Source: Puniceicoccaceae bacterium (GTDB lineage: Bacteria > Verrucomicrobiota > Verrucomicrobiia > Opitutales > Oceanipulchritudinaceae). Taken from it: 64,000 nt of DNA. The notes below the pieces were generated by a model. The model worked only from the letters and a program-made list of their open reading frames with translations. It was not told the DNA's origin and did no database searches. The translations under genes were made by a program, and so were the position numbers. The stretch lies in the NCBI GenBank assembly GCA_040830765.1, contig JBFOMH010000032.1:9827-73826 (forward strand). The letters run 5' to 3'. Shown in pieces: positions 1 through 24,730 of the stretch. Position 1 is the stretch's first letter. Every line of letters starts with the position of its first letter.

Positions 1-1
1 C

Positions 2-7651: not shown

Positions 7652-7671
7652 TCTGGGAGGGCGAACGGTAA

Positions 7672-9057: not shown

Positions 9058-9072
9058 GACACGTAATCGAGT

Positions 9073-10200
9073 TTACTGCGTTGAGAAGCGATGGATGGTT
9101 TTTGTGCGATAGGTCTCACCCGGATTGAGACGGGTTGAGGGAAAGTTTGCCTGGTTGGGTGAATCCGGAAAGTGCTGGGTCTCGAGACACAATCCGTAAC
9201 GGAAGTGGTAGATCGCGCCTCCTTTGCCTTTCAGCGTCCCGTCGAGGAAATTGCCGCTGTAGAACTGGATGCCCGGTTCTTCTGTCCAGATTTCCATCTC
9301 CCTCCCGCTGTCGGGATCATAGAGGCGGGCGGCAAAGTTCAGCGTCGCCTCCTCGTCGGTGTTGAGCACCCAATTGTGGTCGTAGCCACCTCCGAGGAGA
9401 AGCTGTTCAAAGTCGGATTCAATACGCGATCCAATGGGCCGTGCCATGCGGAAGTCCATTGGAGTGCCTTCCACGGGTGCCAGTTCCCCGGTCGGGATAA
9501 GCCCGCTGTCCACTGGCGTGTAGCGGTCCGCATTGAGGGTCAGTTCATGGTCGAGGATGGTCCCGCGTCCCTGGCCGTGGAGATTGAAATAACTGTGATG
9601 GGTCAAATTGACGACGGTGGGCTGATCACTGGTGGCCTCGTAGGTAATGACAAATTGATTCTTGTCGTCGAGTGTGTAGACAACCGTGGCGGACAGGTTT
9701 CCGGGATAACCTTCTTCTCCATCCGGACTGGTATAGCGGAAGGTAACCGAGGCGGAATCTTCTGTGCTGGAGGGTTCGGATTGCCACAAGACCTTGTCAA
9801 ATCCCTGGTTCCCCCCATGGAGGTGGTTTTCGTTGTTGTTGATCGTCAATTGGTAGGAAATTCCGTCGATCTCGAACTGTCCCTTGCCGATGCGGTTACC
9901 GTAGCGACCCACGACACAGCCAAAGTAAGGCGTTTCGATCAGGTAATCCTCCAGCTTCTCATAGCCGAGAACGACATCACCCAGGTTGCCATCCCGGTCG
10001 GGGACATGCAGTTCGGTAACGATGGCCCCGTAGTCAGTGACCTTGAGGACCAGCCCGTTGCTGTTGGTCAGGGTGTAGAGGCGCGCTTCGCTGCCATCGG
10101 GAAGTTGACCATAGGTGGCTTCCTTGATGCTGGGCGCTGAATGAAGGAGCGTACCAATGAGGAGGCAGGAGATACAGGCGAGTGGTTTGAGTGTATTCAT
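9073..10200 (-). CDS. galM: Aldose 1-epimerase (mutarotase) with signal peptide
   Basis: GRYGNRI, HLHGG, EEGYPGNL, VNLTHHSYFNL, GYDHNW, CLETQHFPD. Confidence 0.95.
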   Translation of the reverse strand: MNTLKPLACISCLLIGTLLHSAPSIKEATYGQLPDGSEARLYTLTNSNGLVLKVTDYGAIVTELHVPDRDGNLGDVVLGYEKLEDYLIETPYFGCVVGRYGNRIGKGQFEIDGISYQLTINNNENHLHGGNQGFDKVLWQSEPSSTEDSASVTFRYTSPDGEEGYPGNLSATVVYTLDDKNQFVITYEATSDQPTVVNLTHHSYFNLHGQGRGTILDHELTLNADRYTPVDSGLIPTGELAPVEGTPMDFRMARPIGSRIESDFEQLLLGGGYDHNWVLNTDEEATLNFAARLYDPDSGREMEIWTEEPGIQFYSGNFLDGTLKGKGGAIYHFRYGLCLETQHFPDSPNQANFPSTRLNPGETYRTKTIHRFSTQ

Positions 10201-11489
10201 GATTCAGTAGTGGATGATTCTTGTTTGGGAGGGTTGTTTTTCCAATAATTGGCCAGGATGGATCCGGAAATATTCATCCATGGACTAAAGACCGCCGAGG
10301 CCAGGCCGAGTGTTCCCAGCTTGCCCATCGAACCGGCAATGCCGGAGGCCATGCCACCATTTTGCAGGCCGACCTCCAGCGCCATCGCCCGGGCAGATTG
10401 CTGGTCGAGACCAAGCAGGCGGCTGAGCCAGAACCCAAGGACATATCCGGTGGCGTTGTGAAGGACCGAGGCAAGGAAGAGAAGGAGTCCTATCTGCAGC
10501 AGCTGTTCACGGCCGGCGGCAGTCGTCACGGTAGTGAAATAAACGATACCGGCCATTGAAATATACGGCATGAGGCTGTCGAGGCGCCGGATCAGCAGGG
10601 TAGCGCCGTGGTAGAGGAGCCCGAACAGGACGGCGCCGGCAAAGTAGCCCAGGATGGCGAGGGAGGCTGCAGCCTGCTCATTGAAGCTGGCCTTGATCCA
10701 CGCAGCACCGCCCGCAAGGAGGATAACCAGATAGGCTGCAGAGAATCCCGCCAGCACATAGACATTGCGCCTGCCTTGACTACTGCAATGGCGCAGGAAG
10801 TCGTGCAGCAGTGCAGCCCCAATGGGGACCAGGACAATCTTGATGATCTGCAGCATCATCTTCAGGAAATCGATCTCGATAAGCGTCCCGGCCAGCATCT
10901 TCATCAGGAAGGGGGTGCAGAAGGGCGCCAGCAAAGTGGCGCAGGCCGTAACCGTGATCGAGAGGACAAGGTTGGCCCGGGCCAGGTAGGTCATGACGTT
11001 CGAGGCGAGGCCGCTGGAACAGGAACCAATGAGAATGATACCCGCCGCGATCTCCGCCGGAAAACTGAAGACCTTTGTCAAAATCAAGCCGGAAACCGGC
11101 ATGATGGAGAACTGGCACAGGAGGCCAACAAATACCCCTCTTGGTGAGCGGCTGATGCCCTTGAAATCCGTGGTGTGCATCTGCGTCCCCATGCCGAACA
11201 TGACCGCCTGGACGACCAACAGGACCAGGACCGGGTTGCGCAAGTCAAATTCGCCCCAGCTCAGGAAGGCGGCAGGGTAGGCCAGTCCTGCGACAACAGC
11301 GGTGACGATCCAGGCGGTGTACTGGTATCCTTTCCATTTCTCAAGCGCTCCCAGTCCAAGGGAGAGGCAGACACTGGATGCCAGCAGGGCCGCGTTCCAC
11401 AGGGTCTGGTTCTGGAGGAACAGGCCGAGCAGGACTGTCAGGCCGGCAAGGGCGCTGGCATAGAGACAGGACTGGCGTAGAACCTTCAT
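10197..11489 (-). CDS. Bile acid:sodium symporter (BASS) family transporter
   Basis: Multi-TM protein. VMFGMG, QFSIMP, GSCSSGLASNVMTYLA, EVGLQNGG. Confidence 0.9.
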   Translation of the reverse strand: MKVLRQSCLYASALAGLTVLLGLFLQNQTLWNAALLASSVCLSLGLGALEKWKGYQYTAWIVTAVVAGLAYPAAFLSWGEFDLRNPVLVLLVVQAVMFGMGTQMHTTDFKGISRSPRGVFVGLLCQFSIMPVSGLILTKVFSFPAEIAAGIILIGSCSSGLASNVMTYLARANLVLSITVTACATLLAPFCTPFLMKMLAGTLIEIDFLKMMLQIIKIVLVPIGAALLHDFLRHCSSQGRRNVYVLAGFSAAYLVILLAGGAAWIKASFNEQAAASLAILGYFAGAVLFGLLYHGATLLIRRLDSLMPYISMAGIVYFTTVTTAAGREQLLQIGLLLFLASVLHNATGYVLGFWLSRLLGLDQQSARAMALEVGLQNGGMASGIAGSMGKLGTLGLASAVFSPWMNISGSILANYWKNNPPKQESSTTES

Positions 11490-12154
11490 TTATCAGAATC
11501 GAGTTGGCCCGCCAGCCATTGCATGGCCAGGGCGGGACTGGATAAAATTGGAACCCGGCACTCCTCTGCCGGAATGGTGTCCACGACACGAGCCATCGAG
11601 GCTTGGGCAAGGAGGATGACATCACAGTCCGCCATCAAGGCGAAGAGACCCTCACGGACGCTTGCGTCATGCGCTTCAGGATCGCCTGACATGAGTGCCT
11701 CAAACGCGCCTTCGCAGAGATGCGATTGAACGTCGATTTCCTTGAGGGCAGTCTTGGCTACCCGTTCGACGAGATTCCTGGTCGGCTCAAGAGTGGTGGG
11801 CAGTGTGGCAATAACTCCAATCCGACTGCCGCTGGCAACGGCCTTTTCGGCCATCGCCTGATCCACCCGGTAGACTGGCACGGAGACAAAGAGGCGCGAG
11901 GCCTCAACAGCTGCCCCTATGGAAGAACAGGTGACAAGGATCCGCGTGGCCCCGCTCCCTTCCGCCTGTCGCACAAGTTCTGCCACCCGCCAGGCGACAT
12001 CCGGGGTCAGGCATCCGCTGGCGATGACATCCTTGATAAGGCTGTCGTTGGCGATGTGGAAGGTTGCCACTCCTGGAAGGGAATTGCTGGCCAGGTCCGT
12101 GAATAAGGGAACCAGGGTGGCGGAGGTGTGGATAAAGGCTATTTTCTCTTCCAT
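11486..12154 (-). CDS. Asp/Glu/hydantoin racemase superfamily protein (one canonical Cys)
   Basis: AFIHT, LVTCSSIG, VYRVDQAM, IGVIATLPTT, VILLAQASM. ATG at 12154 lies just after the kinase stop. Confidence 0.85.
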   Translation of the reverse strand: MEEKIAFIHTSATLVPLFTDLASNSLPGVATFHIANDSLIKDVIASGCLTPDVAWRVAELVRQAEGSGATRILVTCSSIGAAVEASRLFVSVPVYRVDQAMAEKAVASGSRIGVIATLPTTLEPTRNLVERVAKTALKEIDVQSHLCEGAFEALMSGDPEAHDASVREGLFALMADCDVILLAQASMARVVDTIPAEECRVPILSSPALAMQWLAGQLDSDK

Positions 12155-12156
12155 AA

Positions 12157-13560
12157 TTACAAGGTCAGGAGGTGGCATTGGCTATGGGATGCGGCTTTGA
12201 TGAAGTAATCTGGCGTTCCGATTTGGCCGCCCTTGAAATTGATTTCTTTTCCATCAAGCTTAGATCCGGCGGCGTGTATGCGGCAAAACGGGGCCCCGCG
12301 GACAAAGGGCTGACTGACAGTCATGGCCTCAATGCCCATGGCGGCTGCGACATGTCCGGACGTGTCCCCACCGGCCACTACGATACGTTCCAAGCCCGTT
12401 TGCTCGATCACTTGATGTGCGATCGATCCCATGGCTGTCCCGAGAATACGCGGCACTTCAGACCCAGCTGCCTGCTCGCTGAAACGTTTCCGGATGGCTG
12501 CCCGGGTGTAACGGGTGCGTCCGTCATCCGGACCGGAATAGGTGTGCAGAATGGCACTCTTTTTGTCCCGCATCATCCGGTTAATTCGTTCCACTGTGTT
12601 GGAAATGACCGCCTCTTCATTACCGGCAAATATCCCGACGGTATCAAGGGCCAGCTCGGCAAAGCCGGCCTTCGTCGCTTCCTGGATCTGATTGACAGTC
12701 ACTGGCGAGCAACTGCCTGAGAGGACGAGGATTGGTTCATCGTAAGCCCCTTCTGCAGTAGCGGGTTCTGGCGGTGTCGGCCGGTTATCACGCCATGCAT
12801 GAGCCAGGGCGTATTCCACAGCGGATGAACCGACCGAAAAAAGTGTCCCCTCTTCCGGCACATTGTCTTCCATCAAGAAACCGGGAATCGACAAGTCAGA
12901 CTCGACAAATGCGTCGAAGAGAACCGCCTCGGTATAGCCGTCTGCGAGCAAGGTTGCCAGGGCCTCGGAGGCTTGAGCTCGCTCCATCCGGCAGTGGAAG
13001 ATATCGAAAAGAGCCGTTTCCCAGCCAGCTTGTTCCTTCAATCTCAGGCGGATATCACTTTCCCGTGCCGGTGTCACTGGATGATGGGCCATCGACGGGT
13101 GCCGGTCCAACCGGTAGACAGGGCTGATATCCCCGGTACCAAGTCGCGCAAACAAGTGTCCGAAAATGCAATACCGCCCGAGGTCAGGAACCCCGATCAG
13201 GACAGGGACAAACTTCGATTTGAAACAGGCAGCACCAACCCGCATGGCAACCCCAATATTGCCCGTTTCCGGGGATGAATCAAAAGTTGAGCATACCTTG
13301 TAATGGCAGTGCCTTGGATTGATGGAGCGGATGAAATCAAAGACCGGCTCGAGGGTTTCCCGCATCCTGTCCGGTCCCATGGTCCGGGTTGTCCCTGCGA
13401 TGCCAAACGCCTCGAGATCCTCAAATGCGGCTAGTTGCTCTTTGGTCGGGACATTCGGAAAAAGCGCTGTCCGGATTCCGGCAAGATGTAATAATTCCAA
13501 GGCGTCCGTGGACCCGGTGAAGTCGTCCCCGTAGAACACAAGTTGGTTTCGCGTGGGCAT
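12157..13560 (-). CDS. DUF1537 four-carbon acid sugar kinase family (3-oxo-isoapionate kinase OiaK-like)
   Basis: YGDDFTGSTD, HYKVCSTFDSSP, RLDRHPSMAHHPVTP, SGSCS, AGGDTS, KGGQIG. Directly follows the RLP gene. Confidence 0.9.
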   Translation of the reverse strand: MPTRNQLVFYGDDFTGSTDALELLHLAGIRTALFPNVPTKEQLAAFEDLEAFGIAGTTRTMGPDRMRETLEPVFDFIRSINPRHCHYKVCSTFDSSPETGNIGVAMRVGAACFKSKFVPVLIGVPDLGRYCIFGHLFARLGTGDISPVYRLDRHPSMAHHPVTPARESDIRLRLKEQAGWETALFDIFHCRMERAQASEALATLLADGYTEAVLFDAFVESDLSIPGFLMEDNVPEEGTLFSVGSSAVEYALAHAWRDNRPTPPEPATAEGAYDEPILVLSGSCSPVTVNQIQEATKAGFAELALDTVGIFAGNEEAVISNTVERINRMMRDKKSAILHTYSGPDDGRTRYTRAAIRKRFSEQAAGSEVPRILGTAMGSIAHQVIEQTGLERIVVAGGDTSGHVAAAMGIEAMTVSQPFVRGAPFCRIHAAGSKLDGKEINFKGGQIGTPDYFIKAASHSQCHLLTL

Positions 13561-13561
13561 C

Positions 13562-14812
13562 TTAATTCTGGCTCCCTCCAAATTTTTCCATAGCCTTGCG
13601 CAGTTCAGGTTTTTCGGTTGCCGCCTCTTCCAGGGGAATACCGGCAATGGCACATTCCCAGGCCTGGCGAATGGCCGTCACGCCTCCAGCCGGACCGTCC
13701 GGGTGGGCCATGATTCCCCCTCCAGCAAGGTAAAGGAGGTCTGTGGTCTGAGTCAGCTTGTAGGTTTCCGGGGCCTGGCCGCCCCATTGACCCGAGGAAA
13801 TGACTGGCATGACCGGTCTCAGGTTATGCCAGTCCTTACGGCACTCAGTGATGGATGCGACCACGGACTCGTCGGGTTCCCAGAACTTGTTCGCGATACC
13901 ATTGACATGCAGTTGGTCGATTCCGGCCAGGCGCCAGAACTTCTGGTAGGCGGCAAAACCCATGCCTGTTGCCGGTTGACGGTTGAGCATACCCCAGCCA
14001 TTCCGGTGACCGTGGAGAACGAAACGGCCCTCGTCGGCTATTGCCTTGACGGCGGCAAAGCCGAGGGGATTCACGCTGAGCATGGCGCAGGTCCCGCCAA
14101 GGGATTCCAGATGGTCACAGTTACGCCGCATGACATCCAGTTCATCCGTGATGTTGGCGGCGTAGATAACCTTCTTGCCCGTTTCATCGAAGTGCCGCCG
14201 GATTTCCCCGAGGATGGCTCGTGTCCGTTCCTTGAAAGGCGAGTGGGGAGGATTGCCCATGAGTTCGTCGTCCTTTATGAAATCAATCCCCGCCGGCAAC
14301 AACTGCCGTACCAAGGCAGCAGTGGCTTCTGGTGAAAGGCCCACACTGGGCTTGATGATGGTGCCGACGAGTGGGCCTTCCTGGCGTCCTGCTGCGGCAA
14401 GTGTTCCCGCAATTCCGTGGGAAGGACCCTTGAACCGGGCGCTTACCTCTGCTGGCAAATCAAAATCCAGCAACCGGATACCGGAGAGTTGTGCCAGCTC
14501 ATAAAGGTTCCCCTGCAGGGTGGAGAGGAGGACAGGAATATTGTCACCCACATTTTCCGCGGGCCAGGAAATGCGCACATGGGCCCGGTTGTAAGTCCCT
14601 GCTGCGGGCCGGGAACCGGGCAGGGAAGGTTCATTGACCGAATCAAGGACCTCCACTTCCTCCACCCGGGCGGCGAACTTCTCTTTCAGGGAAGTCGTCT
14701 CACCCGGCACCTCGACGAAGGTCCCGCTCGATTGCTCGCCGGCAATCGATTCAGCGGCCTTCTTCGGCTCCAGTGGGGTCTCAATCCAGTAAGTGGCTGA
14801 TATGCGGTTCAT
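13562..14812 (-). CDS. RuBisCO-like protein (form IV), OiaT/OiaX-like
   Basis: AGEQSSGTF, GTIIKPSVGLS, DFIKDDE, LHGHRNG, HVNGIANKF, AGGGIMAHPDG. No rbcS or prk in the window. Start taken as ATG 14812. Confidence 0.92.
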   Translation of the reverse strand: MNRISATYWIETPLEPKKAAESIAGEQSSGTFVEVPGETTSLKEKFAARVEEVEVLDSVNEPSLPGSRPAAGTYNRAHVRISWPAENVGDNIPVLLSTLQGNLYELAQLSGIRLLDFDLPAEVSARFKGPSHGIAGTLAAAGRQEGPLVGTIIKPSVGLSPEATAALVRQLLPAGIDFIKDDELMGNPPHSPFKERTRAILGEIRRHFDETGKKVIYAANITDELDVMRRNCDHLESLGGTCAMLSVNPLGFAAVKAIADEGRFVLHGHRNGWGMLNRQPATGMGFAAYQKFWRLAGIDQLHVNGIANKFWEPDESVVASITECRKDWHNLRPVMPVISSGQWGGQAPETYKLTQTTDLLYLAGGGIMAHPDGPAGGVTAIRQAWECAIAGIPLEEAATEKPELRKAMEKFGGSQN

Positions 14813-17576
14813 GGTTCTTGTCCGGATGGTCGGGTTCGCAGGGAATGCGGAAAGTGTAATGCCCGGATGGCAAATGGACTGTGAGGCCTCCATCCGCTTG
14901 CTCAGTTACCTTACCTTCAGCGTCATCCTTGAGCGGCTGCCCCGACTCGGTTATGAGCTCTGCTGTTCCCCAAGGGAAACAAACGTCCGCCGAGCTGTTG
15001 GCCGGGATCTCAACGGACCACTCGAGCAGGGTGTCCTCTACATACCTCCAGTGACTACGGATGCGTCCATAGGGAGAGGTGTATTCTCCCTCGGCCCATT
15101 GCAGGGAGGGATGAGGATGCGGTTTTAAAATAAAGGTCTGGAAACCGGGTTCGTTCGGTTTGTAGTTAATACCCGCTACATGGCTGTAGAGCCATTCCCC
15201 GATGGAGCCGAGTGAGTAATGGTTGAAGGAATTCATGTGGGCATCGAGGAAGCCATCCTCCTCAGTCCAGGCATTCCAGCGCTCCCAGATGGTAGTGGCC
15301 CCGTGCCGGACAGGATAGAGCCACGACGGATAGTCATCCTTTAGCAGCAGCTCGTAGGCAAGGTCGGCATGGCCATAGTCGGTTAGGATCGGGTTGAGGA
15401 AACGGATTCCGATGAATCCCGTACTGAGGTGCTTATCGAGCGAACGGATATTGTCGACAAGGTGGCCAACGGCCTTCGCCCGGAGTTCCGCCGGGAGGAG
15501 GTCCATGGCCAAGGCAAGCAGGTAAGCGGTCTGGGTATCGACCTCAAGCGATCCATCCGGCCGAACGTAGGCTTCCTGGAAGGCATCCCGGACGCGGGTA
15601 AAGGTCTGCTCGAAGCGTACGGCTTCCTCTTCCCGTCCGAGTTCCCTGGCCATTTCCGCCATCTTGCTGGCATCATCGGCCCAAAAGGCCGTAGCGAGCA
15701 GATTCTTCAGCGGCGAATGGGTCCGGAACGTTGTATCCGATGGTATGCTGAGCCAGTCCCCGTAGTTGTTGGCTAGTTCGTTGATCCGCAGGCCGTCCGG
15801 GTTGGTCCGTTCAATGTAATCGAGCCAGGCGGTCATGGCATTCCAGTGGCGCTCGATGATGCGGCGGTCACCATAGACCTTCCAGATGGTCCACGGGATG
15901 ATAACCCCGGCATCCGCCCAACCGGGACTTCCGCCAAGGCCATCGAGGCCAATGAAATTGCCATCCTCCGGAAGGCGGGGAGCGGTGTCGGGAAAGATGC
16001 CATTCTCCGTCTGGGCATCCTCAACATCGACCATCCATTTGGTAAAGAACGCGGCCACATCCATGTTGAAGGCAGCTGTGCGGATAAAGACTTGGGCATC
16101 TCCCATCCATCCAAGGCGTTCGTCGCGCTGGGGACAATCGGTCGGGACACTGAGGAAATTATCGATCTGCGACCACAGGCCGTTGAGCCAGAGTCTGTTG
16201 ACCCCCTCATGTGAGCAGGAAAAGCTGCCGCTTTGCGGCGTGGCCGACTGGACCACGCAGGCAGTCAGGTCGCCGCTCGAGGGTGCCTTGGAGAGACCGG
16301 AAATTTCGAAATACTGGAACCCGTGAAAAGTAAAGGACGGTTCCCAGGTTGCAGGACCCTGCCCATCACAGATGTACGTATCGGTCGCCCTGGCCCGGCG
16401 AAGATTTTCCGTGAAGAGGCTACCGTCGGCCTTGAGGCGTTCCCCGTGGCGGAGGACGATTGACTTACCAGCCGGCTCATCGACCCGTATCCGCATCCAG
16501 CCGGCGATGTTTTGACCGAGGTCACAGAGCCAGGTATCTTCACCGGTTTGGCGGATGGAAACGGGCTCCAGTTCCTTGATCACCCGCACTGGCTGCGATT
16601 GCTGGGCGACCAGAGGCACATCTGGTTGGTCGACTTCCAGAACCGGCAGCCAGTCCTGTTCATCGAACTGTGGCTGGTCCCACCCCTCCACCTGGCGGCG
16701 GTTGTCGCAGGTCTCGCCCATCATGAAGTCAGAGAAGAGGATGGGGCCGGTGTTACAGCGCCAGGATGAGTCGGTGCTAACGGTCGTAACCGTGCCATCA
16801 TCCATTTCCAGCTCCAGCTGGCAGATAAAGCTGTTGGTGAGTCCATACTGGCCCCGCGTTTCCTGCCAGCCGACATAACCGCTGAACCAACCATCACCAA
16901 GAATGGCTGCGAGCACATTCTCTCCTTCCTGCAGCAGGGAGGTAACGTCGAATGTCCGGTAATGGATCCGTTTGCGGTAATCGGTCCACTCGGGCAGGAA
17001 GCGGTCCTCTGTTACTTCCGTCCTATTGATCCGGAGTCGCAGCAAGCCGCGGCCACTCGCATAGAGGATTGCCCGCTTCGGTCTGGCTGATGCAGTGATA
17101 TTTTTCCGGAAGTAACCCGGGCTGGAACAGGTTGTCCAGTCGGATGGACTTGCCTCCTTGTCCCGGGCAATTGCCTCCGGATTCAATCCGATCCAATCCG
17201 TATTCCAGTCAGATGTCTCCAGCAGGCCGATGCTAAAGAAGGCGGGCCCGGAAGCGACTTCCAACCCAGTCTCGTCCCTGACGACAACCCTCCAATAAAC
17301 GTTGGCTCGCGAGGTCAGCGCCTTTCCCTCGCAGGCAATCTGGGTGCTCTGGCTACCTTCGATCCAGCCGCTGTCCCAGATGTCAGTTTCCCCGGATTCA
17401 AGTAACCCTGCCTCGCTGGCGGCGAGGATACGATAGGCTACCTGTCGCTTGCCCCGCTGGTCGGACTGCATCCGCCATGCCAGGCGCGGTTGGACCGTGT
17501 CAATGCCCAACGGGTTGACAAGATATTCGCAGGTCAGATCCGAGAGGGTAAAGGATTGCTGGGAGTCGGTAGCCAT
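14781..17576 (-). CDS. GH78 alpha-L-rhamnosidase (no signal peptide)
   Basis: LTCEYLVNPLGID, FTFHGFQY, TDCPQRDERLGWMGD, GATTIWERW, NSFNHYSLG. Confidence 0.93.
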   Translation of the reverse strand: MATDSQQSFTLSDLTCEYLVNPLGIDTVQPRLAWRMQSDQRGKRQVAYRILAASEAGLLESGETDIWDSGWIEGSQSTQIACEGKALTSRANVYWRVVVRDETGLEVASGPAFFSIGLLETSDWNTDWIGLNPEAIARDKEASPSDWTTCSSPGYFRKNITASARPKRAILYASGRGLLRLRINRTEVTEDRFLPEWTDYRKRIHYRTFDVTSLLQEGENVLAAILGDGWFSGYVGWQETRGQYGLTNSFICQLELEMDDGTVTTVSTDSSWRCNTGPILFSDFMMGETCDNRRQVEGWDQPQFDEQDWLPVLEVDQPDVPLVAQQSQPVRVIKELEPVSIRQTGEDTWLCDLGQNIAGWMRIRVDEPAGKSIVLRHGERLKADGSLFTENLRRARATDTYICDGQGPATWEPSFTFHGFQYFEISGLSKAPSSGDLTACVVQSATPQSGSFSCSHEGVNRLWLNGLWSQIDNFLSVPTDCPQRDERLGWMGDAQVFIRTAAFNMDVAAFFTKWMVDVEDAQTENGIFPDTAPRLPEDGNFIGLDGLGGSPGWADAGVIIPWTIWKVYGDRRIIERHWNAMTAWLDYIERTNPDGLRINELANNYGDWLSIPSDTTFRTHSPLKNLLATAFWADDASKMAEMARELGREEEAVRFEQTFTRVRDAFQEAYVRPDGSLEVDTQTAYLLALAMDLLPAELRAKAVGHLVDNIRSLDKHLSTGFIGIRFLNPILTDYGHADLAYELLLKDDYPSWLYPVRHGATTIWERWNAWTEEDGFLDAHMNSFNHYSLGSIGEWLYSHVAGINYKPNEPGFQTFILKPHPHPSLQWAEGEYTSPYGRIRSHWRYVEDTLLEWSVEIPANSSADVCFPWGTAELITESGQPLKDDAEGKVTEQADGGLTVHLPSGHYTFRIPCEPDHPDKNHEPHISHLLD

Positions 17577-17597
17577 GGGTCCGGAAGCGGGGACTTC

Positions 17598-17780
17598 CTA
17601 ATTGTCGTCAAGACTGGTACTGTGCATCCAGAAAGGAGCGGAGGAAAACCAGGCAACCATGCCAATCAGCATCAGGGTATACTGGAGGGAGTTGTCGATA
17701 ACGCCGATGAGGACAAGCGCCCCGGGAATCAAGGTCAGGGCAAGACCGGTAAATGAGATAAGTTTCAATATGTTATTCAT
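17598..17780 (-). CDS. Small two-TM membrane protein (60 aa)
   Basis: Fills the gap between the NCS1 and GH78 genes on the operon strand. Two hydrophobic helices. Confidence 0.7.
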   Translation of the reverse strand: MNNILKLISFTGLALTLIPGALVLIGVIDNSLQYTLMLIGMVAWFSSAPFWMHSTSLDDN

Positions 17781-17794
17781 GGGAATGTAATTTA

Positions 17795-19255
17795 TTAGGA
17801 GTTAGTCGATGCAGGATGACGACGCTGTTGCAGCCAGGAGAAGAAGAGATACAGGGAGACGGCGAGGATCCATTCCGGGCCAACCATGAACAGCAGGTCT
17901 ACCTTGATGGCAGCCAGCCAGTCCGGTTGCCAGGGAGCGACCAGCTTGTTCATCCAAGCGTAGTGGTCCTTGGCGTACATGAAGAATGAAAATCCGAACG
18001 AGATGATCCAGGCCAGCAGGGCAGGCCAGCTTAACAGCTTGCCTGTTTTCTCGATGTAGTTACTGACCATGCCAAGGCGGGGAAGGATCCAGACATCAAT
18101 GAAGATACAGGCTCCCAGAGGCATGAAGAAAAGGCCGTAGAAGCCTACGATCCGGTCGAGGTTCCGGTTGACGTCGGGAATGCAGGCCGTGATGACCATG
18201 AAGGCCCCGGCGGCAAAGGTTACCTTCCAGCGCTGCCAGTTGGGTGTCGCCACCTGAATGGCGAGGCCGGCCCGGTAGAGGGTCGGATTGGCGGTTGTCC
18301 ACCCGGCAATGACAACACAGACCGCACCGGCGACGCCCGCCCCAAGCAGGGCGATTTCACCGGGGGTTGTATTCCCCATGGCGGCGGCGCAGAGGATGGC
18401 GGAAGCGATCCAGGCAAGAAAGTGTCCGATGTACATGCCGAAGGCGGAAGCAAAGCCACTGGTCCACTTTCTGGCGTAGCGGAAAATGGTGACATCCGAC
18501 ATTCCGATGTGCTGGGTGGCATTGCAAAGCCAGGCAAAACCCATCACATGCCAGAAGGTGTACTTGGAGAATCCGGGTAACGGTTCCCCGGTAAAGATCC
18601 GTTCCTTGAAGGCCGGCCAGATTTCCCCGAACGAATGGACGTCCAGCATCGGGAGGACAGCCATGCCGGCGGAGAGAAAGACCAGTGCCATCCAGGGGGC
18701 GCAAATCTTGGAGAACTGGGCCAGTTTCTCGAAACCGAGGACGGCCAGGATGGCGATGACGGAACCGACCACCAGCGCCAGCAGCATCCATGGCACGCTG
18801 GGGAACATGTCCTGCGGCCCCGGATTCTGGATGCCGGGAAAGACCAGGGAAACGGCGGTTACCGAGACGTTGACCATGGCACCAGCCAGCAGGCAGAGGA
18901 CGATGGCATAAAAGACGCTATAGGCGACGGTAATGTAGGGACCACACATCTTGCGCAGCTGCCAGTAGATGGTGAGGCGGGTCCTGACCGCAACCGGGGC
19001 ACAGAGGAGCGCCCAACTGAGGACGGCAAGAAGGTTGCCGACAAGCAAGCCTCCGAGGAAGTCGGTCGCCGTTACCCCGTGGGCCAGCATGAGCGGACCG
19101 AGGACAAATTCCGTTCCGGCAACGTGCTCGCCGGCGAACATGGCGATAAAGGTCTTGTGTCCATGTAGCTTTTTTCCGGCAACAGGTTCCCGGTCGTATT
19201 CGTAGAGGGCGTCCAGGCGCTCTACGATTGTGTGTTGGGATTCATCATGACTCAT
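17795..19255 (-). CDS. NCS1 / purine-cytosine permease-like transporter
   Basis: About 12 TM segments. YDREPV, FAGEHVAGTEF, LLVGNLLAV, AGWTTANPTLY. Confidence 0.75.
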   Translation of the reverse strand: MSHDESQHTIVERLDALYEYDREPVAGKKLHGHKTFIAMFAGEHVAGTEFVLGPLMLAHGVTATDFLGGLLVGNLLAVLSWALLCAPVAVRTRLTIYWQLRKMCGPYITVAYSVFYAIVLCLLAGAMVNVSVTAVSLVFPGIQNPGPQDMFPSVPWMLLALVVGSVIAILAVLGFEKLAQFSKICAPWMALVFLSAGMAVLPMLDVHSFGEIWPAFKERIFTGEPLPGFSKYTFWHVMGFAWLCNATQHIGMSDVTIFRYARKWTSGFASAFGMYIGHFLAWIASAILCAAAMGNTTPGEIALLGAGVAGAVCVVIAGWTTANPTLYRAGLAIQVATPNWQRWKVTFAAGAFMVITACIPDVNRNLDRIVGFYGLFFMPLGACIFIDVWILPRLGMVSNYIEKTGKLLSWPALLAWIISFGFSFFMYAKDHYAWMNKLVAPWQPDWLAAIKVDLLFMVGPEWILAVSLYLFFSWLQQRRHPASTNS

Positions 19256-19300
19256 AGGGGTGTTTTTTGGTGTTATTGTTTATGAGGTACCGGAACGGAT

Positions 19301-21364
19301 TCAGCGGAGTGGTATCCAGACGGTCATGTCGTGGTCGCCGCGGTTTCCCCATGCATAATAGGGTATCCAGCGGGTATCGATTGATTTCAGCTTCTGCGGG
19401 CGCAGTGGGCGGTAAAGTTGATTCTCGTCCCACTGGGAGCGGTCGATGACCGTGGCAGGCAGCTCGATGGAGAGCATCTCCGCATCCTCGACCTTGACCG
19501 GCTTGAGCCCGGCGGAGCCGGTGGAGTCCACCTCGAGGGCGACGTCGAGAATATTGACGCCCTCCGGCAGGTCGACGGATTCAAGGCAATAGACCAGGGG
19601 ACCGTACTTGAGGGCTACCTGGTTGGCTGTTTCCTCGACAAGGGGATTGGCCTCCCAAAGCTCCGGCTGCAGCTGCAGTTGCAGGCTGATGGAGTCGCCC
19701 GGTTGCCACTGGCGTTCAATGGAGTGGTAGGTGCCGGGGAGCAATGCCTCCCCGCAGTCTTCCCCGTTGACGGAGAGGGAGGCGCCTCCGGTGGCCAGCC
19801 ATCCGGGAATTCTCAGCTTGATGGTTGCCGGATGGTCCGGGGCTTCCTTGATGGAGAGTTTGATGGAACCGTTCCAGGGATAGCCCGTTTCCTGAATCAG
19901 ATGCAAGGGGCTGCCGTCGGGCAGGACAGTATCCAGTTCGCTGGGACCGTAGAGGTTCACCCAGACGGTGTCTTCCGACAGGCTGTAGACGTAGTTTTGG
20001 ACCTGTGCCAGCGTCCGGATGACATTGGGAGGGCAGCAGAAACTGCGGGGAATGTTGGGCTCACGCGTGCGCGACCAGCGCAGGGGCCAGTCAAAGGCGT
20101 CTACCTTCTGAAGGGCGTTGACGTAGAAGTAGTGGGTGCCATCGAGGCTGATTCCCGGCAGAACTCCATTATAAAGCGAGTTCTCGAACAAGTCGGCATA
20201 GCGGGCTTCGCCTGTCAGCATCAGCATGCGCCAGTTCCACATGGCGTAGCCGATGGTGGCGCAGGTCTCGTTGTAGGCCGTCTTGTTTGGTAGTTGATAA
20301 TCGATACCATAAGCCTGGTGGGTGGTCTTGATGCCTTCGTGGTCCTTGGTGCCGTACGGGGAGGCACCATCGTAGAGGGCCCCGGTCATGCCGGTGATAT
20401 AAAGCTTCTGCCCGGCGACGTCGTCGGCGATTGTCTCCAGCGTCTCGAGAATCGTGTCATCACCGGACTCCGTGTAGACATCCGCCGCCCCGGCATAGAG
20501 ATAGTTTGCGCGGACGGCATGGCCGACAGCCTCCTCCATTTCACGGAACGGTACACGGTCCTGGTTGTGGTCGGAACCGTCATCGACAAGGTCCCGGATC
20601 TCGATGAGCTGCTTTGCCAGTTCGAGGTAACGGGGCTCCCGCGTGGTGCGGTACAGCTCAACAACTCCCATGTAGTGGGACGGGCAAATGGCATTTCTGG
20701 CTAATTCCGGGGAGGAGGTCTCGTAGAAATTGTAGAGGTAGTCCGCCGCCTTTCGAGCCAGTTGCAGCATGCTGGTCTTGCCCGTGGCCCGGTAATGGAC
20801 GCAGGCCGTCGTCATGAGGTGCCCCATGTTGTAGGTCTCGAAGTGGTAGCGGTCGAGAAACTGGTTGGCCCGGGTCTGTCCCTGTCGTTCCGGAATGATG
20901 TTCTGGGTATGAAGATACCCGTCTTCCCGCTGGGCGAGGCCGACCACATGAATGATCCGGTCCATGAGGCTGTCGATCTCCGGATCCCGGGTTATGGCAT
21001 AGACACTGGCCATGCCCTCGAACCACTTGAGAAAGTCACCATCATTAAAGGGAGGGCCATGGAACTTGCCATCCCGGCCATCATCAAGTCCGGCGGCGAG
21101 GAGGAAGTTGGCCCAGGCATGGCTTCCATGCTCGTCCTGGAATATTTCCCACATGTAAGGAATCATGGTGTCCTGGAGGACCTGAAAGCGGTCACCCCAG
21201 AGGCCGCCGGTCCAGTGGGCGTCATCCAGCTCCACCATCCGCATGACAGCCATGGGCGAATGGGTGGTATCGATGAGGCAGTTTTGGCCGGCCTGAAGGC
21301 CTGTGGAGAGGACCACCGGAAAGGTTAGAAGAAGTGTAACTCGATGCAGAATAGATTTGGTCAT
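19301..21364 (-). CDS. GH127, aceric acid hydrolase (BT1003)-like
   Basis: ARNAICPSHYMG, GHAVRANYLYAG, HQAYGIDYQLPN, YNETCA, CCPPN, IPYYAWGNRG. Signal peptide. Confidence 0.88.
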   Translation of the reverse strand: MTKSILHRVTLLLTFPVVLSTGLQAGQNCLIDTTHSPMAVMRMVELDDAHWTGGLWGDRFQVLQDTMIPYMWEIFQDEHGSHAWANFLLAAGLDDGRDGKFHGPPFNDGDFLKWFEGMASVYAITRDPEIDSLMDRIIHVVGLAQREDGYLHTQNIIPERQGQTRANQFLDRYHFETYNMGHLMTTACVHYRATGKTSMLQLARKAADYLYNFYETSSPELARNAICPSHYMGVVELYRTTREPRYLELAKQLIEIRDLVDDGSDHNQDRVPFREMEEAVGHAVRANYLYAGAADVYTESGDDTILETLETIADDVAGQKLYITGMTGALYDGASPYGTKDHEGIKTTHQAYGIDYQLPNKTAYNETCATIGYAMWNWRMLMLTGEARYADLFENSLYNGVLPGISLDGTHYFYVNALQKVDAFDWPLRWSRTREPNIPRSFCCPPNVIRTLAQVQNYVYSLSEDTVWVNLYGPSELDTVLPDGSPLHLIQETGYPWNGSIKLSIKEAPDHPATIKLRIPGWLATGGASLSVNGEDCGEALLPGTYHSIERQWQPGDSISLQLQLQPELWEANPLVEETANQVALKYGPLVYCLESVDLPEGVNILDVALEVDSTGSAGLKPVKVEDAEMLSIELPATVIDRSQWDENQLYRPLRPQKLKSIDTRWIPYYAWGNRGDHDMTVWIPLR

Positions 21365-21380: not shown

Positions 21381-22859
21381 TTAATGGAGAAGGGCTTGGC
21401 GGATGGCCGAAGACCATCCTGCGTAAAGTTTCTGTTTTTGTTGGTCGTCCATCGCCGGGGAATAAACCGGCTCATTACCGGCAGGTTCGGGCAGTGATTC
21501 CAAGTCGGCTATGGTGCCGGTCCCGATCATTCCCATGAGGGCGGAACCGAGTGGTGAACCGTCGGCGACACTGCTCACGCGGACCGGAATCTGTGTCATG
21601 TCGGCTATGAACTGCATGAGGAACCGGTTTGCAGTGGGGCCTCCATCGGCATGGACCGCTTTGAGTTCGAGGGAGGAGCTGGCTGCCATGGCATCGAGGG
21701 CATCCTTCAACTGGTAGGCAATGGCCTCAAGGGCTGCGCGGACAACATGCCGGCGGTCGCTATGGCTGCTCAATCCGGTAATCAAGGCGCGTGCATTGGG
21801 GTCCCAGTGCGGCAAGCCGAGCCCGGTAAAGGCCGGTACGAGGTAGACACCCCCGTTGTCATCGATCTCGGTGGCCAATGATTCGGACTCGGCGGCATCA
21901 GCAAGGATGCCCAGTTGTGATTTCAGCCACGCCAGAGTGGAGGCGGAGCTGACAATGATCCCCTCCAGGGCATAGGTGGCCTTGTTCGAGCGGACCCAAC
22001 CAAGGGTGGTCAGGACACCATTGTCCGAGAGGGAGGCCGCCTCACCAATGTTCATGAGAATCGATGAGCCGGTGCCGAGGGTTACCTTGGTCATTCCCGG
22101 GCTGAAGCAGCGCTGGGCGAATAGGGAAGCATGGGAGTCTCCCATAACGCCGCAAATGGGTGTTCCGTTCAGGGGTTCACAGTCCGCCACTTCGCCGAAC
22201 GTGGCATCGCAATCCCTGATTTCCGCAAGGGCTTTACGGGGAACTCCCCAGAGATCGCAAAGGTGGTCATCCCAATCCCGCTCCGTGATGTTGTAGAGAA
22301 GGGTGCGGCAGGCGTTAGTGTGGTCCGTCGCGAAGACCCTGCCCCGGGTGAGGCGATAGATGAGATACGTGTCGATCGTCCCGACGAGGGCCCGGCCCTC
22401 CTCGAGTTGTTGAGTCAGTCCGGGGTTGGCCTCAATCAACACCTGTAACTTGCTGGCGGAAAAGTAGGGATCGAGCGTCAATCCTGTCCGTTGGTGGACA
22501 TCGGGCTCCGCGCCACTTTCCTTGAGCTTCTGGCAGGCATCTGTTCCCCGGCGGCATTGCCAGACGATGGCAGGGTAGAGCGGTTCTCCGGTTTCGCGGG
22601 AGAAGACAACGACCGTTTCGCGCTGATTGGAAATGCTGAGACAGCGCACGCCGGACGGGTCGTTGCACTGGGCCGCTGCTTCTTCCAGGACGGCCAGGGT
22701 GTTGGCGTAGATTTCCCCGGCATCCTGCTCAACGTATCCAGGTTGTGGATACGATTGCCCGTGTTCCTTGGATGCCCGGGCCAGGACGCTGGCATTCCCG
22801 TCTAGGAGAATGGCCTTGGTGGCGGAAGTACTTTGGTCAATGGAGAGGAAACAGGGCAT
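21381..22859 (-). CDS. FGGY / glycerol-kinase-like carbohydrate kinase (apulose kinase-like by context)
   Basis: SIDQSTSATK, ISNQRET, AIVWQCRR, DPYFSASK, TDHTNACRT, VPAFTGLG, DGG. Confidence 0.88.
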   Translation of the reverse strand: MPCFLSIDQSTSATKAILLDGNASVLARASKEHGQSYPQPGYVEQDAGEIYANTLAVLEEAAAQCNDPSGVRCLSISNQRETVVVFSRETGEPLYPAIVWQCRRGTDACQKLKESGAEPDVHQRTGLTLDPYFSASKLQVLIEANPGLTQQLEEGRALVGTIDTYLIYRLTRGRVFATDHTNACRTLLYNITERDWDDHLCDLWGVPRKALAEIRDCDATFGEVADCEPLNGTPICGVMGDSHASLFAQRCFSPGMTKVTLGTGSSILMNIGEAASLSDNGVLTTLGWVRSNKATYALEGIIVSSASTLAWLKSQLGILADAAESESLATEIDDNGGVYLVPAFTGLGLPHWDPNARALITGLSSHSDRRHVVRAALEAIAYQLKDALDAMAASSSLELKAVHADGGPTANRFLMQFIADMTQIPVRVSSVADGSPLGSALMGMIGTGTIADLESLPEPAGNEPVYSPAMDDQQKQKLYAGWSSAIRQALLH

Positions 22860-22878
22860 GGGGTATGTCAGGATGGAC

Positions 22879-23883
22879 TCATGTCTTGGGGATCAGCTTC
22901 ATGGCTGCCTGGGAAAGGCCTTCCATGGATATGCCATAGTGACGGAATATATCGGCCTGGCTTCCGGTTACGGTGTATTCGTCAGGAATGCCAATACGTT
23001 GGAACGGCTTGTGGACACCGGCTTCCATGAACAAGCCAGCGCAGGCTTCCCCGAGTCCACCGTTGACCATGTGTTCCTCAACGGTGACCACGGCGCTGCA
23101 GGTGCGGGCGCCTTCCAGAATGGCCTCCGTGTCGAGGGGCTTGATGGTCGGAAGACTGAGGACAGATGCCTCGATTCCGGCCTCCTTGTGCAGTAGCTCG
23201 GCTGCCAGCCAGGCATGGATGACCGTTTCGCCGGTGGCAATAAAGAGGATGTCCTTGCCGCTGCGCAGAGGCCGCGCTTGGCCGATTTGGAAAGGCTTAT
23301 TCCCGGGAAGATCATATTGGGCCGCTTTCCCAAAGCGCAGATAGACAGGACTTTCCAGGTTGACTGCCTGCCTGACCGCTTCGGCGGTCTCGAAGTTGTC
23401 CGCGGGGACGAGGATGGTGAGATTGTTGATAGCCCGCAAGGCCGCCAAGTCATGCAGGGAATGGTGAGTCGAACCGAGGGCACCATAGCTGACACCGGCA
23501 CTGATGCCAACGAGCGTTACGGGGTTGTCTGAGTAGGCGACGTCGTTCTTGATCTGTTCCAGCGCTCGTGCCGAGAGGAAGCAGGCGGGTGAGACTGCCA
23601 GGGTTTTCTTGCCTGTTGAGGCAAGGCCGGCTGCGACGCCGACGAGGTTTTGTTCGGCAATGCCCATCTCGACAATCTGGTCCGGCAGAGCTTCCCCGAA
23701 GGGCTTCAGTTTGCCTGAACCGCGGGAGTCACTGGTCACGACCAGCACATCGCGATCGGCTCTTGCCAACTCGAGGGCGGTCTCAGCAAAAACCTCGAGG
23801 TTGGGCCGTCCGAGCTTGAGGCCAGTCTCCTTAATCAGGCTGGCTGCCGCTTCGCTGAACAGGGATGGGGCGGGTGCGCTCAT
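22879..23883 (-). CDS. Split transketolase, C-terminal subunit (AptB-like)
   Basis: EMGIAEQNL, RALEQIKND, GSTHHS, PVYLR, TVEEH, GGLG. Confidence 0.93.
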   Translation of the reverse strand: MSAPAPSLFSEAAASLIKETGLKLGRPNLEVFAETALELARADRDVLVVTSDSRGSGKLKPFGEALPDQIVEMGIAEQNLVGVAAGLASTGKKTLAVSPACFLSARALEQIKNDVAYSDNPVTLVGISAGVSYGALGSTHHSLHDLAALRAINNLTILVPADNFETAEAVRQAVNLESPVYLRFGKAAQYDLPGNKPFQIGQARPLRSGKDILFIATGETVIHAWLAAELLHKEAGIEASVLSLPTIKPLDTEAILEGARTCSAVVTVEEHMVNGGLGEACAGLFMEAGVHKPFQRIGIPDEYTVTGSQADIFRHYGISMEGLSQAAMKLIPKT

Positions 23884-24722
23884 GTGGTTAACCTCCCCTT
23901 AGCTGCTTCAAGTTTCTTGTCCAGTTCAGCCATGGCCGTTTGCAATTGTTCCTCGCTCGGGACGCCATGATGCCAGCTCCCGACATCTTCCATGAAAGAG
24001 ACACCCTTGCCCTTTGTTGTCCTCGTGATGACAACCGTTGGCTTGCCAACTTCAAGGGGTGAAGCCATGGCCTCCTCCAAGGCTTGGAAATCGTGCCCGT
24101 CCACTGTCGTTACCGCCCAGCCAAAAGAGCGGAACTTATCCTCCAGTGGTTCATGGTTCATGACCTCGCAGGTGCGGCCGGTTATCTGCAGGGTGTTGAC
24201 ATCGAGAATCGCAGTCAGGTTGTCCAGCTTGTAGTGGGATGCTGCCATGGCCGCTTCCCAGTTGGAGCCTTCCGCCAGCTCGCCATCCCCGAGAAGGGTG
24301 AACACGCGATAGTCCTTATTATCCAACTTGCCGGCAATGGCCATGCCGACCGCAATGGGCAGTCCATGGCCAAGGGCACCGGTGTTTTGTTCGATTCCGG
24401 GAATCTTGCGGGTCGGATGGCCGACAAAGTGCGATTGGTATTGGCAAAGGGTATCGAGTTCAGCCGCCGGAAAAAATCCCCGGTTGGAAAGGACTACGTA
24501 AAGTGCCTCGACCGAGTGTCCCTTGCTTTGGACATAGCGGTCACGGTCTGGATCATCGGGCCTTTCGGGGGAAATCCTCAGGATGCGGTTATAAAGGACA
24601 ATCAGGATGTCGAGGCAGGAGAGGCTTCCACCCGTATGACCGGCGCCAGCTTGGTAAATGGCGCCGAGCATCTGCTTGCGCAACTCAAGCGACTTGATCT
24701 GGAGGTCTTCGCTAACGGACAT
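23880..24722 (-). CDS. Split transketolase, N-terminal ThDP-binding subunit (AptA-like)
   Basis: GHTGGSLS, DRDRYVQSKGH, TGALGHG, GDGELAEGSNWE, KGKG, WHH. Start taken as ATG 24722. Confidence 0.93.
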   Translation of the reverse strand: MSVSEDLQIKSLELRKQMLGAIYQAGAGHTGGSLSCLDILIVLYNRILRISPERPDDPDRDRYVQSKGHSVEALYVVLSNRGFFPAAELDTLCQYQSHFVGHPTRKIPGIEQNTGALGHGLPIAVGMAIAGKLDNKDYRVFTLLGDGELAEGSNWEAAMAASHYKLDNLTAILDVNTLQITGRTCEVMNHEPLEDKFRSFGWAVTTVDGHDFQALEEAMASPLEVGKPTVVITRTTKGKGVSFMEDVGSWHHGVPSEEQLQTAMAELDKKLEAAKGRLTT

Positions 24723-24730
24723 CGGTTTGT

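Follow-up and report, generated by a model that had tools for sequence, protein, structure and literature searches.

Bacteria reportedly degrade D-apiose and D-apionate by oxidative routes, described by Carter et al. in 2018, in which ApnO is followed by OiaK and then by either the decarboxylase OiaX or the transcarboxylase/hydrolase OiaT. Four-carbon acid sugars are said to be taken through a 3-oxo-tetronate pathway, described by Zhang et al. in 2016, that uses a dehydrogenase, the isomerase OtnI, the kinase OtnK, and the decarboxylase OtnC. Both share features with four genes in a stretch of 64,000 nucleotides from a Puniceicoccaceae bacterium (GCA_040830765.1, contig JBFOMH010000032.1, positions 9,827-73,826 of the forward strand), hereafter called the window. 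The genes encode a RuBisCO-like protein (RLP), a DUF1537 kinase, a protein with the fold of the Asp/Glu/hydantoin racemases (RAC), and a symporter of the BASS/SBF family. The reading favoured here, with some reservation, is that they form a catabolic cassette for L-aceric acid (3-C-carboxy-5-deoxy-L-xylose), which is found in side chain B of rhamnogalacturonan-II (RG-II).

According to a 2026 JBC paper (PMC13753588), all three oxidative apiose routes go via D-apionate and ApnO to 3-oxo-isoapionate, route 2 consists of ApnO, OiaK, and OiaT, and the apiose enzymes have not been analyzed further since 2018; the words aceric, RuBisCO, and racemase do not occur in it. The window resembles routes 1 and 2 in that a DUF1537 kinase and an RLP are encoded side by side, with OiaK and OiaX as their top curated models. 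The proposed intermediate would also be a branched 2-hydroxy-3-oxo acid with a terminal CH2OH group, and the chemistry would be as for 3-oxo-isoapionate 4-phosphate. However, the cassette contains RAC and an anion symporter and not ApsD, ApnL, and ApnO, its model scores are below the cut-offs, it is found in RG-II loci beside an aceric acid hydrolase, and its substrate would have CH(OH)CH3 in the place of CH2OH. With the 3-oxo-tetronate pathway it would share isomerisation to a 3-oxo acid with a free CH2OH, phosphorylation by a DUF1537 enzyme, and removal of the carboxylate, but it ends with an RLP and not with a class II aldolase-fold decarboxylase, its isomerase would have another fold, and a dehydrogenase would not be needed.

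The idea of an aceric acid pathway was put forward earlier from the DNA letters and open reading frames (the original prediction), with the remark that no such pathway was known. A literature search on aceric acid, RLPs, and DUF1537 kinases likewise found no described pathway, and NCBIfam (June 2026) holds no model that names the RLP, the kinase, or RAC of this clade. The kinds of enzymes are already known, but the activity proposed for RAC would be new to its fold.

The cassette and its distribution

Thirty-nine proteins of the window were compared with Pfam and NCBIfam, and the family search was also run at E 0.01. A co-directional run of eight open reading frames (ORFs) had been described, in the order GH127, NCS1 permease, 60-aa protein, GH78, RLP, DUF1537 kinase, racemase-fold protein, and BASS symporter; all eight are on the minus strand, where they had been placed (Table 1). 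The ORF of the RLP was first called as 13562-14893, but the database copy (P0001) shows that its real length is 416 aa, with the start near 14812. Its best NCBIfam match is OiaX (474 bits, below the cut-off of 700), and its top match in PDB is 3nwr, "a rubisco-like protein" (438 bits). Six motifs do not vary among 14 relatives (IIKPS, DFIKDDE, HGHRNGWG, HVNGIANK, SSGQWGG, and GGGI), and the first four presumably cover K175, K201, D203, E204, H294, and K334 of RuBisCO. By these motifs the protein appears to keep the lysine that is carbamylated, the ligands of the metal, and the lysine of loop 6, as a member of the RuBisCO large-subunit superfamily.

DUF1537 kinases are acid-sugar kinases, and the kinase of the window displays their two-domain architecture (PF07005 and PF17042). 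It scores 372.5 bits with OiaK (NF042436), also short of a cut-off of 700, 171 with 3-oxo-tetronate kinase, and 80 with D-threonate kinase; its relatives in PDB are 5dmh, 3dqq, and 1yzy. The ORF was called as 12157-13653, but since the model alignments begin at residue 32 the start is probably near 13560. The RLP stop overlaps this start by a few bases (13560-13562), and the GH78 gene runs about 32 nt into the start of the RLP gene (14781-14812). Together these overlaps suggest translational coupling. The symporter matches PF01758 with 114 bits (cut-off 24.3), while TIGR00841 (196.9 bits, cut-off 326) and PanS (199.8 bits) both stay under their cut-offs.

RAC matches PF01177 with 75.9 bits, and its true start may be Met9 at 12154. 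An AlphaFold (AF2) model based on 34 sequences (pLDDT 96.3, pTM 0.90) has Glu, Asp, and allantoin racemases as its top Foldseek matches (TM 0.70-0.76, 13-20% identity). In HMMER alignments to hydantoin and allantoin racemases, C84 of RAC (motif TCSS) falls at the first catalytic Cys, while Q192 (motif LAQASMAR) is found at the position of the second. Both residues are invariant in the 34 sequences, as are H17, R104, D106, H170, D171, and R197. The predicted fold and the first cysteine thus resemble those of the PF01177 racemases, but RAC lacks their pair of catalytic Cys (or Cys/Thr), is at most 20% identical to the solved members, has the six further invariant residues as a feature of its own family, and is found in a context of sugar-acid catabolism and not of amino acid or ureide metabolism. 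For racemisation, bases are required on both faces, while one base is in keeping with the suprafacial shift of a proton, as in aldose-ketose isomerisation, or with a protonation of the decarboxylase type; RpiB is a precedent for aldose-ketose isomerisation by a cysteine. A one-base isomerase would therefore fit RAC, since it has kept one of the two racemase cysteines and has a glutamine for the other. The RAC profile matches 7,817 cluster representatives at E<=1e-10, and the source names are all generic among the 120 homologues listed.

Related loci were fetched with an alignment of 14 RLPs (A1) from contigs of one genome per species, and the best 80 of 577 confirmed matches were analyzed. Their RLPs are 51-62% identical to that of the window, and the neighbourhood was scored within 10 kb. 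The 1,226 ORF-called proteins were clustered, and the key features were re-scored by tblastn as a guard against ORF miscalls. A kinase follows the RLP in 75 of the loci, RAC is found in 58, and BASS in 47; the order RLP-kinase-RAC-BASS occurs in 44 loci and RAC-BASS-RLP-kinase in three. Judged by gene order, RLP-kinase-RAC-BASS is a conserved cassette. It is found in Bacteroidota, Verrucomicrobiota, and Planctomycetota, and in a variant form in Acidobacteriota and Sphingomonas. RAC adjoins an anion transporter in 52 of its 58 loci, BASS in 46 and a galactonate-type MFS transporter in six. Three candidate isomerases had originally been named, starting at 11486, 24731, and 3446, and of these just the first (RAC) is conserved along with the cassette.

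When it comes to the genes that would feed the oxidative apiose route, they tend to be found where RAC is missing. The ApnL-like cluster scores 345 bits with the D-apionate lactonase model ApnL, under its cut-off of 750. Cluster c14 (280 aa) matches PF16896 (PGDH_C) and, more weakly, the N-terminal NAD(P)-binding families F420_oxidored and PDH_N (prephenate dehydrogenase). The ApnO paper counts prephenate dehydrogenase and 6-phosphogluconate dehydrogenase among the structural relatives of ApnO (PMC13753588), and since these are the families matched by c14, the cluster was treated as ApnO-like. ApnL-like or ApnO-like genes occur in 15 of the 80 loci, two of which (L073 and L079) also have RAC. 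Counted by locus, 56 have only RAC, 13 have only ApnL/ApnO-like genes, two have both, and nine have neither; six of these nine are short contigs. In apionate-type loci the ApnL/ApnO-like genes adjoin the kinase and the RLP, both among the related loci and in the published account (PMC13753588). In the window, none of the 39 proteins matches ApnL, ApnO, or Gfo/Idh/MocA models, and tblastn of the window (E<=1e-3) gave no match to an ApnL-like protein, an ApnO-like protein, or two dehydrogenases of the Gfo/Idh/MocA type, all taken from related loci. Within the reach of these searches, the statement that ApsD, ApnL, and ApnO are absent from the window stands.

The ApnL/ApnO-type loci L052, L058, L068, and L076 also carry a D-2-hydroxyacid dehydrogenase (c49). 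It resembles the "putative dehydrogenase/reductase" adjoining apionolactonase that PMC13753588 presents as a candidate new apiose dehydrogenase.

The GH127 of the window would link the cassette to aceric acid. Its N-terminus resembles a signal peptide (MTKSILHRVTLLLTFPVVLSTGLQAG), its sole NCBIfam match is aceric acid hydrolase (NF049879, 942.5 bits), and its top PDB match is 5mqo_A (693 bits, the next being 378), which we take to be BT1003 of Bacteroides thetaiotaomicron. The RG-II loci of that organism are not known to contain an RLP cassette. BT1003 is the characterised aceric acid hydrolase (PMC13501991; PMC10850190), and a BT1003 deletion mutant is reported to build up AceA-Rha-Api (bioRxiv 10.64898/2026.03.13.711244). 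GH127 proteins of the related loci were called BT1003-like at 40% identity or more to that of the window. Such a gene is found in 26 of the 58 RAC loci and in none of the 13 loci with only ApnL/ApnO-like genes, so that of the two partners suggested originally for the RLP/kinase clade, BT1003-like GH127 or apnO, the former is borne out. In 18 loci this GH127 gene shares its strand with the RLP and is the immediate upstream neighbour (gaps of 0-197 nt), and in two more it is upstream in divergent orientation. NF049879 is the sole match of every one of 26 such proteins that were scanned; 21 of them, all from Bacteroidota, pass the cut-off of 950 (1028-1198 bits), while the five from Planctomycetota and Verrucomicrobiota score 814-943 bits. 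Clusters of RG-II-type carbohydrate-active enzymes (CAZymes) show the same division, with at least one in 48 of the 58 RAC loci against two of the 13 ApnL/ApnO-only loci.

The variant form has another neighbour. In eight loci of Acidobacteriota and Pseudomonadota (Sphingomonas-type; L063, L064, L069, L071, L074, L078, L079, and L080), the gene that directly precedes the RLP encodes a divergent 610-aa protein of the GH127/GH146 clan, and several of these loci also have RAC adjoining the galactonate-type MFS anion symporter. From this arrangement they seem to represent a second, independent architecture of the cassette. The top PDB match of the divergent protein is 5opj (124 bits), and it scores 101 bits with the aceric acid hydrolase model; it may be an unrecognised lineage of aceric acid hydrolases or a beta-L-arabinofuranosidase.

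A tree of 81 RLPs was made by an IQ-TREE "quick" search, with SH-aLRT as the only support measure. The window RLP falls within a clade of 55 rows (SH-aLRT 98) from Bacteroidota, Verrucomicrobiota, and Planctomycetota. RAC is present in 49 of the 54 other loci of this clade, and the exceptions are four short contigs and L007. In the latter, which has full flanks, the RLP is directly preceded by an aceric acid hydrolase gene (1145 bits), and there is neither a kinase nor RAC within 10 kb. A BT1003-like GH127 is carried by 27 loci of the clade, and ApnL-like or ApnO-like genes by none; the loci with such genes are on other branches of the RLP tree.

Proposed route for aceric acid and competing explanations

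Both the comparison of the 80 loci and the chemistry on paper support the aceric acid reading of the original prediction. Aceric acid and its 2-ketose are isomers (C6H10O6), and their interconversion is redox-neutral, while the step from apionate to 3-oxo-isoapionate removes two hydrogens and is NAD-dependent. The exported GH127, assigned to its family by homology, would release aceric acid from AceA-Rha-Api oligosaccharides, and the anion would be imported by BASS, or by the MFS anion symporter in Acidobacteriota and Sphingomonas. RAC would then use its single conserved cysteine as the base in a cofactor-free, suprafacial 1,2-proton shift from the aldose to the 2-ketose. The product would be HOOC-C(OH)(CHOH-CH3)-CO-CH2OH, the methyl homologue of 3-oxo-isoapionate, and this one redox-neutral step would stand in for the dehydrogenase, the lactonase, and the oxidoisomerase of the apiose route. 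In the next step the DUF1537 kinase would phosphorylate the newly formed primary alcohol. The RLP might finally act in either of two ways: an OiaT-like transcarboxylation/hydrolysis would turn the phospho-keto acid and water into 3-phosphoglycerate and lactate, while an OiaX-like decarboxylation would give CO2 and a 5-deoxypentulose 1-phosphate, later split to dihydroxyacetone phosphate (DHAP) and acetaldehyde. The mass balance closes for both outcomes.

The need for an isomerase follows from the substrate. Open-chain aceric acid offers the kinase no primary alcohol, as its C1 is an aldehyde and its C5 a methyl group. Isomerisation would create this alcohol together with a beta-keto acid, the kind of compound on which RLPs of this family act. 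RAC is put forward for the step because no other enzyme conserved in the cassette could carry it out, and because it adjoins the importer. When it comes to the RLP, we lean slightly towards the transcarboxylase/hydrolase mode, though the preference is weak; the cassette is self-contained and has no conserved aldolase, which favours 3-phosphoglycerate and lactate, and the ApnL/ApnO-like loci of this RLP family look like route 2, as no erythrulose-phosphate isomerases are found among their recurrent neighbours (clusters in at least three loci). A homology search with an alphaproteobacterial ApnO-linked RLP, made with the OiaX and OiaT modes in mind, returned only generic names, and there was no curated OiaT model among the NCBIfam matches.

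Several observations weigh against this reading. The RLPs of the two groups of loci interleave in the tree, with the RAC-BASS loci L048 and L056 branching among the ApnL loci, and the RAC state changes eight times on the tree. Fisher tests give 1.3e-7 for RAC against ApnL/ApnO and 0.0014 for GH127, but these values ignore relatedness. An independent-pairs test of RAC against ApnL/ApnO gave 0 pairs changing in the same and about three in opposite directions, with about three unchanged (median p 0.25, six pairs), and for RAC against the GH127 family there was essentially no signal (six pairs); with just six usable pairs the test cannot reach 0.05. As mentioned above, L073 and L079 carry RAC together with an ApnO-like gene, while in L071, which lacks RAC, the divergent GH127 is accompanied by ApnL/ApnO-like genes. 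These three loci are compatible with a bispecific kinase and RLP, and also with an apiose function. The kinase and the RLP may be naturally bispecific, and loci with both RAC and an ApnO-like gene could then funnel apiose as well as aceric acid through this one pair of enzymes.

The proteins themselves do not separate the two types of loci either. The OiaX model gives 445-544 bits, all below 700, to 28 related RLPs, RAC-linked and ApnL/ApnO-linked alike, and 18 related kinases score 366-528 bits with OiaK. As both locus types score alike and under the cut-offs, these scores are uninformative on the substrate and were dropped as a discriminator. Between RAC-linked and ApnL/ApnO-linked RLPs 23 alignment columns differ, and no conclusion on specificity was drawn from them; taken as a whole and not column by column, the minority residues seem to fit clade history rather than convergence, and no set of RLP residues separates the two locus types convergently. 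It should further be added that the window GH127 is 7.5 bits under the equivalog cut-off of NF049879, that a GH127 is missing within 10 kb of 32 of the 58 RAC loci, and that its proximity, where found, could reflect general membership of RG-II loci and not a link between substrate and product. To our knowledge there is no aldose-ketose isomerase in the Asp/Glu racemase fold. The single-Cys RAC could equally be a decarboxylase, like arylmalonate decarboxylase; enzymes of this kind are also single-Cys enzymes, and they are among the Foldseek matches of RAC.

This last point leads to a first alternative, in which the cassette handles another acidic sugar or sugar-acid derivative of pectin, with RAC as an epimerase or as a decarboxylase of the beta-keto-acid or malonate type. 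The missing GH127 genes would agree with it, as would ten RAC loci without a clustered RG-II CAZyme, the arylmalonate decarboxylase matches, and the divergent GH127 of the Acidobacteriota, which is nearest to a GH146-type structure and not to BT1003. We nevertheless find it rather unlikely. The other acids of RG-II (GalA, GlcA, Kdo, and Dha) are linear or 3-deoxy-2-keto acids with aldolase-type routes and have no tertiary carboxylate, unlike the substrates of OiaK and OiaX, and another part of the window (34123-40010) contains a candidate Dha/Kdo operon. A decarboxylating RAC would moreover make the kinase and the RLP redundant, yet the three travel together.

A second alternative is an ordinary oxidative D-apiose route, in which the substrate of the kinase and the RLP is 3-oxo-isoapionate, formed by an ApsD, an ApnL, and an ApnO whose genes are in another part of the genome, while RAC and BASS are accessory. 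OiaX and OiaK are the top matches, apiose is freed from the same glycan as aceric acid, and the RLPs of the ApnL/ApnO-like loci are 51-57% identical to that of the window, like many RAC-linked ones with which they interleave. However, the top matches are far under the equivalog cut-offs, 56 of the 58 RAC loci have neither an ApnL-like nor an ApnO-like gene within 10 kb, none was found in the window, and RAC is tied to an anion transporter and not to a sugar ABC system. In genuine apionate loci the feeder genes sit beside the kinase and the RLP (PMC13753588). The window seems, in addition, to have its own means of using apiose. The original prediction had seen a non-oxidative apiose-like route just upstream of the run, and Pfam and NCBIfam agree on a FucI-like isomerase, a split transketolase, and an FGGY kinase. 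These genes may form a route of isomerase, kinase, and transketolase such as has been described for D-apiose, though the assignment to apiose is inferred. As in the window, FucI-like and transketolase genes are found beside the cassette in seven of the 58 RAC loci, and in all of these a second apiose route would be redundant. Altogether an oxidative apiose function is unlikely.

Growth of soil bacteria on RG-II also bears on this. Soil Flavobacterium strains growing on RG-II are reported to secrete apiose and Kdo, and so to leave both unmetabolised (bioRxiv 10.64898/2026.03.13.711244). Four Flavobacterium loci (L027, L034, L042, and L044) have RLP-kinase-RAC-BASS, and if the strains grown on RG-II carry the cassette, it is unlikely to serve apiose.

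That aceric acid is the substrate but is isomerised by the FucI-like protein (24731-26149) or by a xylose-isomerase-like TIM barrel (3446-4360), with RAC acting on a later or side product, is very unlikely: both have folds with known aldose-ketose or keto-acid isomerases and a homologue of the latter is directly upstream of the RLP in L016, but FucI-like genes occur in just seven RAC loci, always with transketolase genes, and the TIM-barrel cluster in two of the 80 loci (three counting the window), while RAC is found in 58 and beside the importer in 52 of these.

The favoured reading of the cassette, as one for aceric acid, can be extended to the whole transcription unit. The cassette, the transketolase-type route for apiose, and the cytoplasmic GH78 for rhamnose would together dispose of the AceA-Rha-Api core of side chain B. 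The full picture, in which RAC is the first aldose-ketose isomerase of its fold, the RLP forms 3-phosphoglycerate and lactate by transcarboxylation/hydrolysis, and the operon is dedicated to AceA-Rha-Api, is a tentative one and as a whole doubtful.

Transcription unit and surrounding genes

The eight-gene run is the middle of a unit of 14 co-directional genes on the minus strand (26149 to 7672), in which genes overlap or are separated by at most 45 nt throughout; the spacing between the FGGY kinase, transketolase, and FucI-like genes is -31 to +19 nt. The strongest terminator-like hairpin is found just past the last gene. A promoter scan was uninformative, as it gave seven sites against 7.4 expected. 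The window also encodes GH141, a BT0996-like GH2, a BT1020-like protein, DUF6298, GH95, three GH78, two GH28, and PL1-like proteins. Judged by these families, the 64 kb are an RG-II degradation supercluster, that is, an RG-II degradome.

Table 1. Features of the 14-gene unit and the hairpin that follows it (window coordinates).
Feature	Position	Strand	Basis
FGGY kinase, split transketolase (two genes), FucI-like isomerase (upstream part of unit)	21381..26149	-	Pfam/NCBIfam
GH127, probable aceric acid hydrolase (BT1003-like)	19301..21364	-	Pfam catalytic, middle, C domains
Polytopic membrane protein, 486 aa, possibly a very divergent NCS1-type permease	17795..19255	-	Atlas look-alikes
60-aa hydrophobic ORF, candidate gene, two predicted membrane spans by eye	17598..17780	-	Translation
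GH78 alpha-L-rhamnosidase	14781..17576	-	Five GH78 Pfam domains
RLP, 416 aa, OiaX/OiaT-related	13562..14812	-	PF00016 + PF02788
DUF1537 acid-sugar kinase, 3-oxo-acid kinase branch	12157..13560	-	PF07005 + PF17042
RAC, Asp/Glu/hydantoin-racemase fold, single catalytic Cys, proposed aceric acid aldose-ketose isomerase	11486..12178	-	PF01177
BASS/SBF-family organic-anion:sodium symporter, proposed aceric acid importer	10197..11489	-	PF01758
Exported aldose 1-epimerase (downstream part of unit)	9073-10200	-	Family models
Exported GH28 (downstream part of unit)	7672-9057	-	Family models
Terminator-like hairpin	7651-7632	-	Hairpin scan

The aldose 1-epimerase (GalM) and the GH28 do not recur beside the cassette in the 80 loci. 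The GH78 has an N-terminus (MATDSQQSFTLSDL) without a signal peptide and is probably cytoplasmic, while GH127, GalM, and GH28 all have one. Five loci of Verrucomicrobiota (L005, L012, L013, L028, and L051) have an MFS transporter (c17) adjoining GH78. Together with the permease and the small membrane ORF that precede the signal-less GH78 of the window, these loci suggest that a rhamnoside (Rha-Api?) is imported and cleaved in the cytoplasm.

The protein before the 60-aa ORF had been called an NCS1 permease. It is a polytopic membrane protein, but the NCS1 family did not hold up: there is no Pfam or NCBIfam match even at E 0.01, and the NCS1 model PF02133 is among those not matched. A language-model look-alike search (Atlas) gave 0.98 to clusters auto-named purine-cytosine permease, and PF02133 is found on just 18% of the members of the top cluster, so that NCS1 is no more than a lead. 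The 486-aa protein has no homologue in the 80 loci. The 60-aa ORF has no family match and no tblastn match in these loci.

A second small-molecule operon is found on the minus strand at 34123-41218, adjoining the BT1020-like gene, which is of the Dha hydrolase type. It encodes a LacI regulator, an SSS transporter, an Fe-alcohol dehydrogenase, a DHDPS-family aldolase, a PdxA-family dehydrogenase, and a second DUF1537 kinase (398 aa), which is D-threonate-kinase-like. From these families we infer that the operon would fit a route for 3-deoxy-lyxo-heptulosaric acid (Dha), in which the aldolase would give pyruvate and a C4 aldehyde-acid, and the latter, after reduction to a tetronate and phosphorylation, would yield DHAP by oxidative decarboxylation. 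The Fe-alcohol dehydrogenase, DHDPS, and PdxA genes are found together in one of the 80 related loci (L021).

Two further gene sets were seen in the related loci. In loci of Chitinophagaceae type, a block of GH141, a Gfo/Idh/MocA dehydrogenase (c7), an SSS transporter (c10), and a GH78-like protein (c13) precedes GH127-RLP-kinase-RAC-BASS (L014, L015, L017, L022, L025, L035, L036, L050, and L055, at about 1-10000). The substrate of the c7 dehydrogenase might perhaps be fucose or 2-O-methyl-fucose; by tblastn, c7 has no counterpart in the window. The other set, clusters c31, c15, c16, c22, c30, and c40, is found upstream of GH106/GH127 in L006, L009, L018, and L026, and also in L004, L033, and L049. 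It consists of an SBP-like protein, a Gfo/Idh/MocA protein, a MaoC-like hydratase, a FucP-type permease, and two CaiB/Frc-type CoA-transferases, and by these families it might represent a CoA-dependent route for a sugar or sugar acid in RG-II loci.

Implications for RG-II catabolism

The breakdown of RG-II by gut and soil bacteria is well mapped at the level of the glycosidases, while the fate of the aceric acid monosaccharide is not. If the proposed function is right, the cassette would fill this gap across Bacteroidota, Verrucomicrobiota, and Planctomycetota, and in its variant form in Acidobacteriota and Sphingomonas. Aceric acid would then be a new physiological substrate for RuBisCO-like proteins, possibly in a new reaction context, and a large unnamed branch of the racemase superfamily would be given a function. 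The genes would also make up a marker set to predict which microbes consume, and do not secrete, aceric acid in pectin fermentation. If, in addition, the RLP works as a transcarboxylase/hydrolase, just four genes would take the rarest sugar of the plant cell wall directly to glycolysis.

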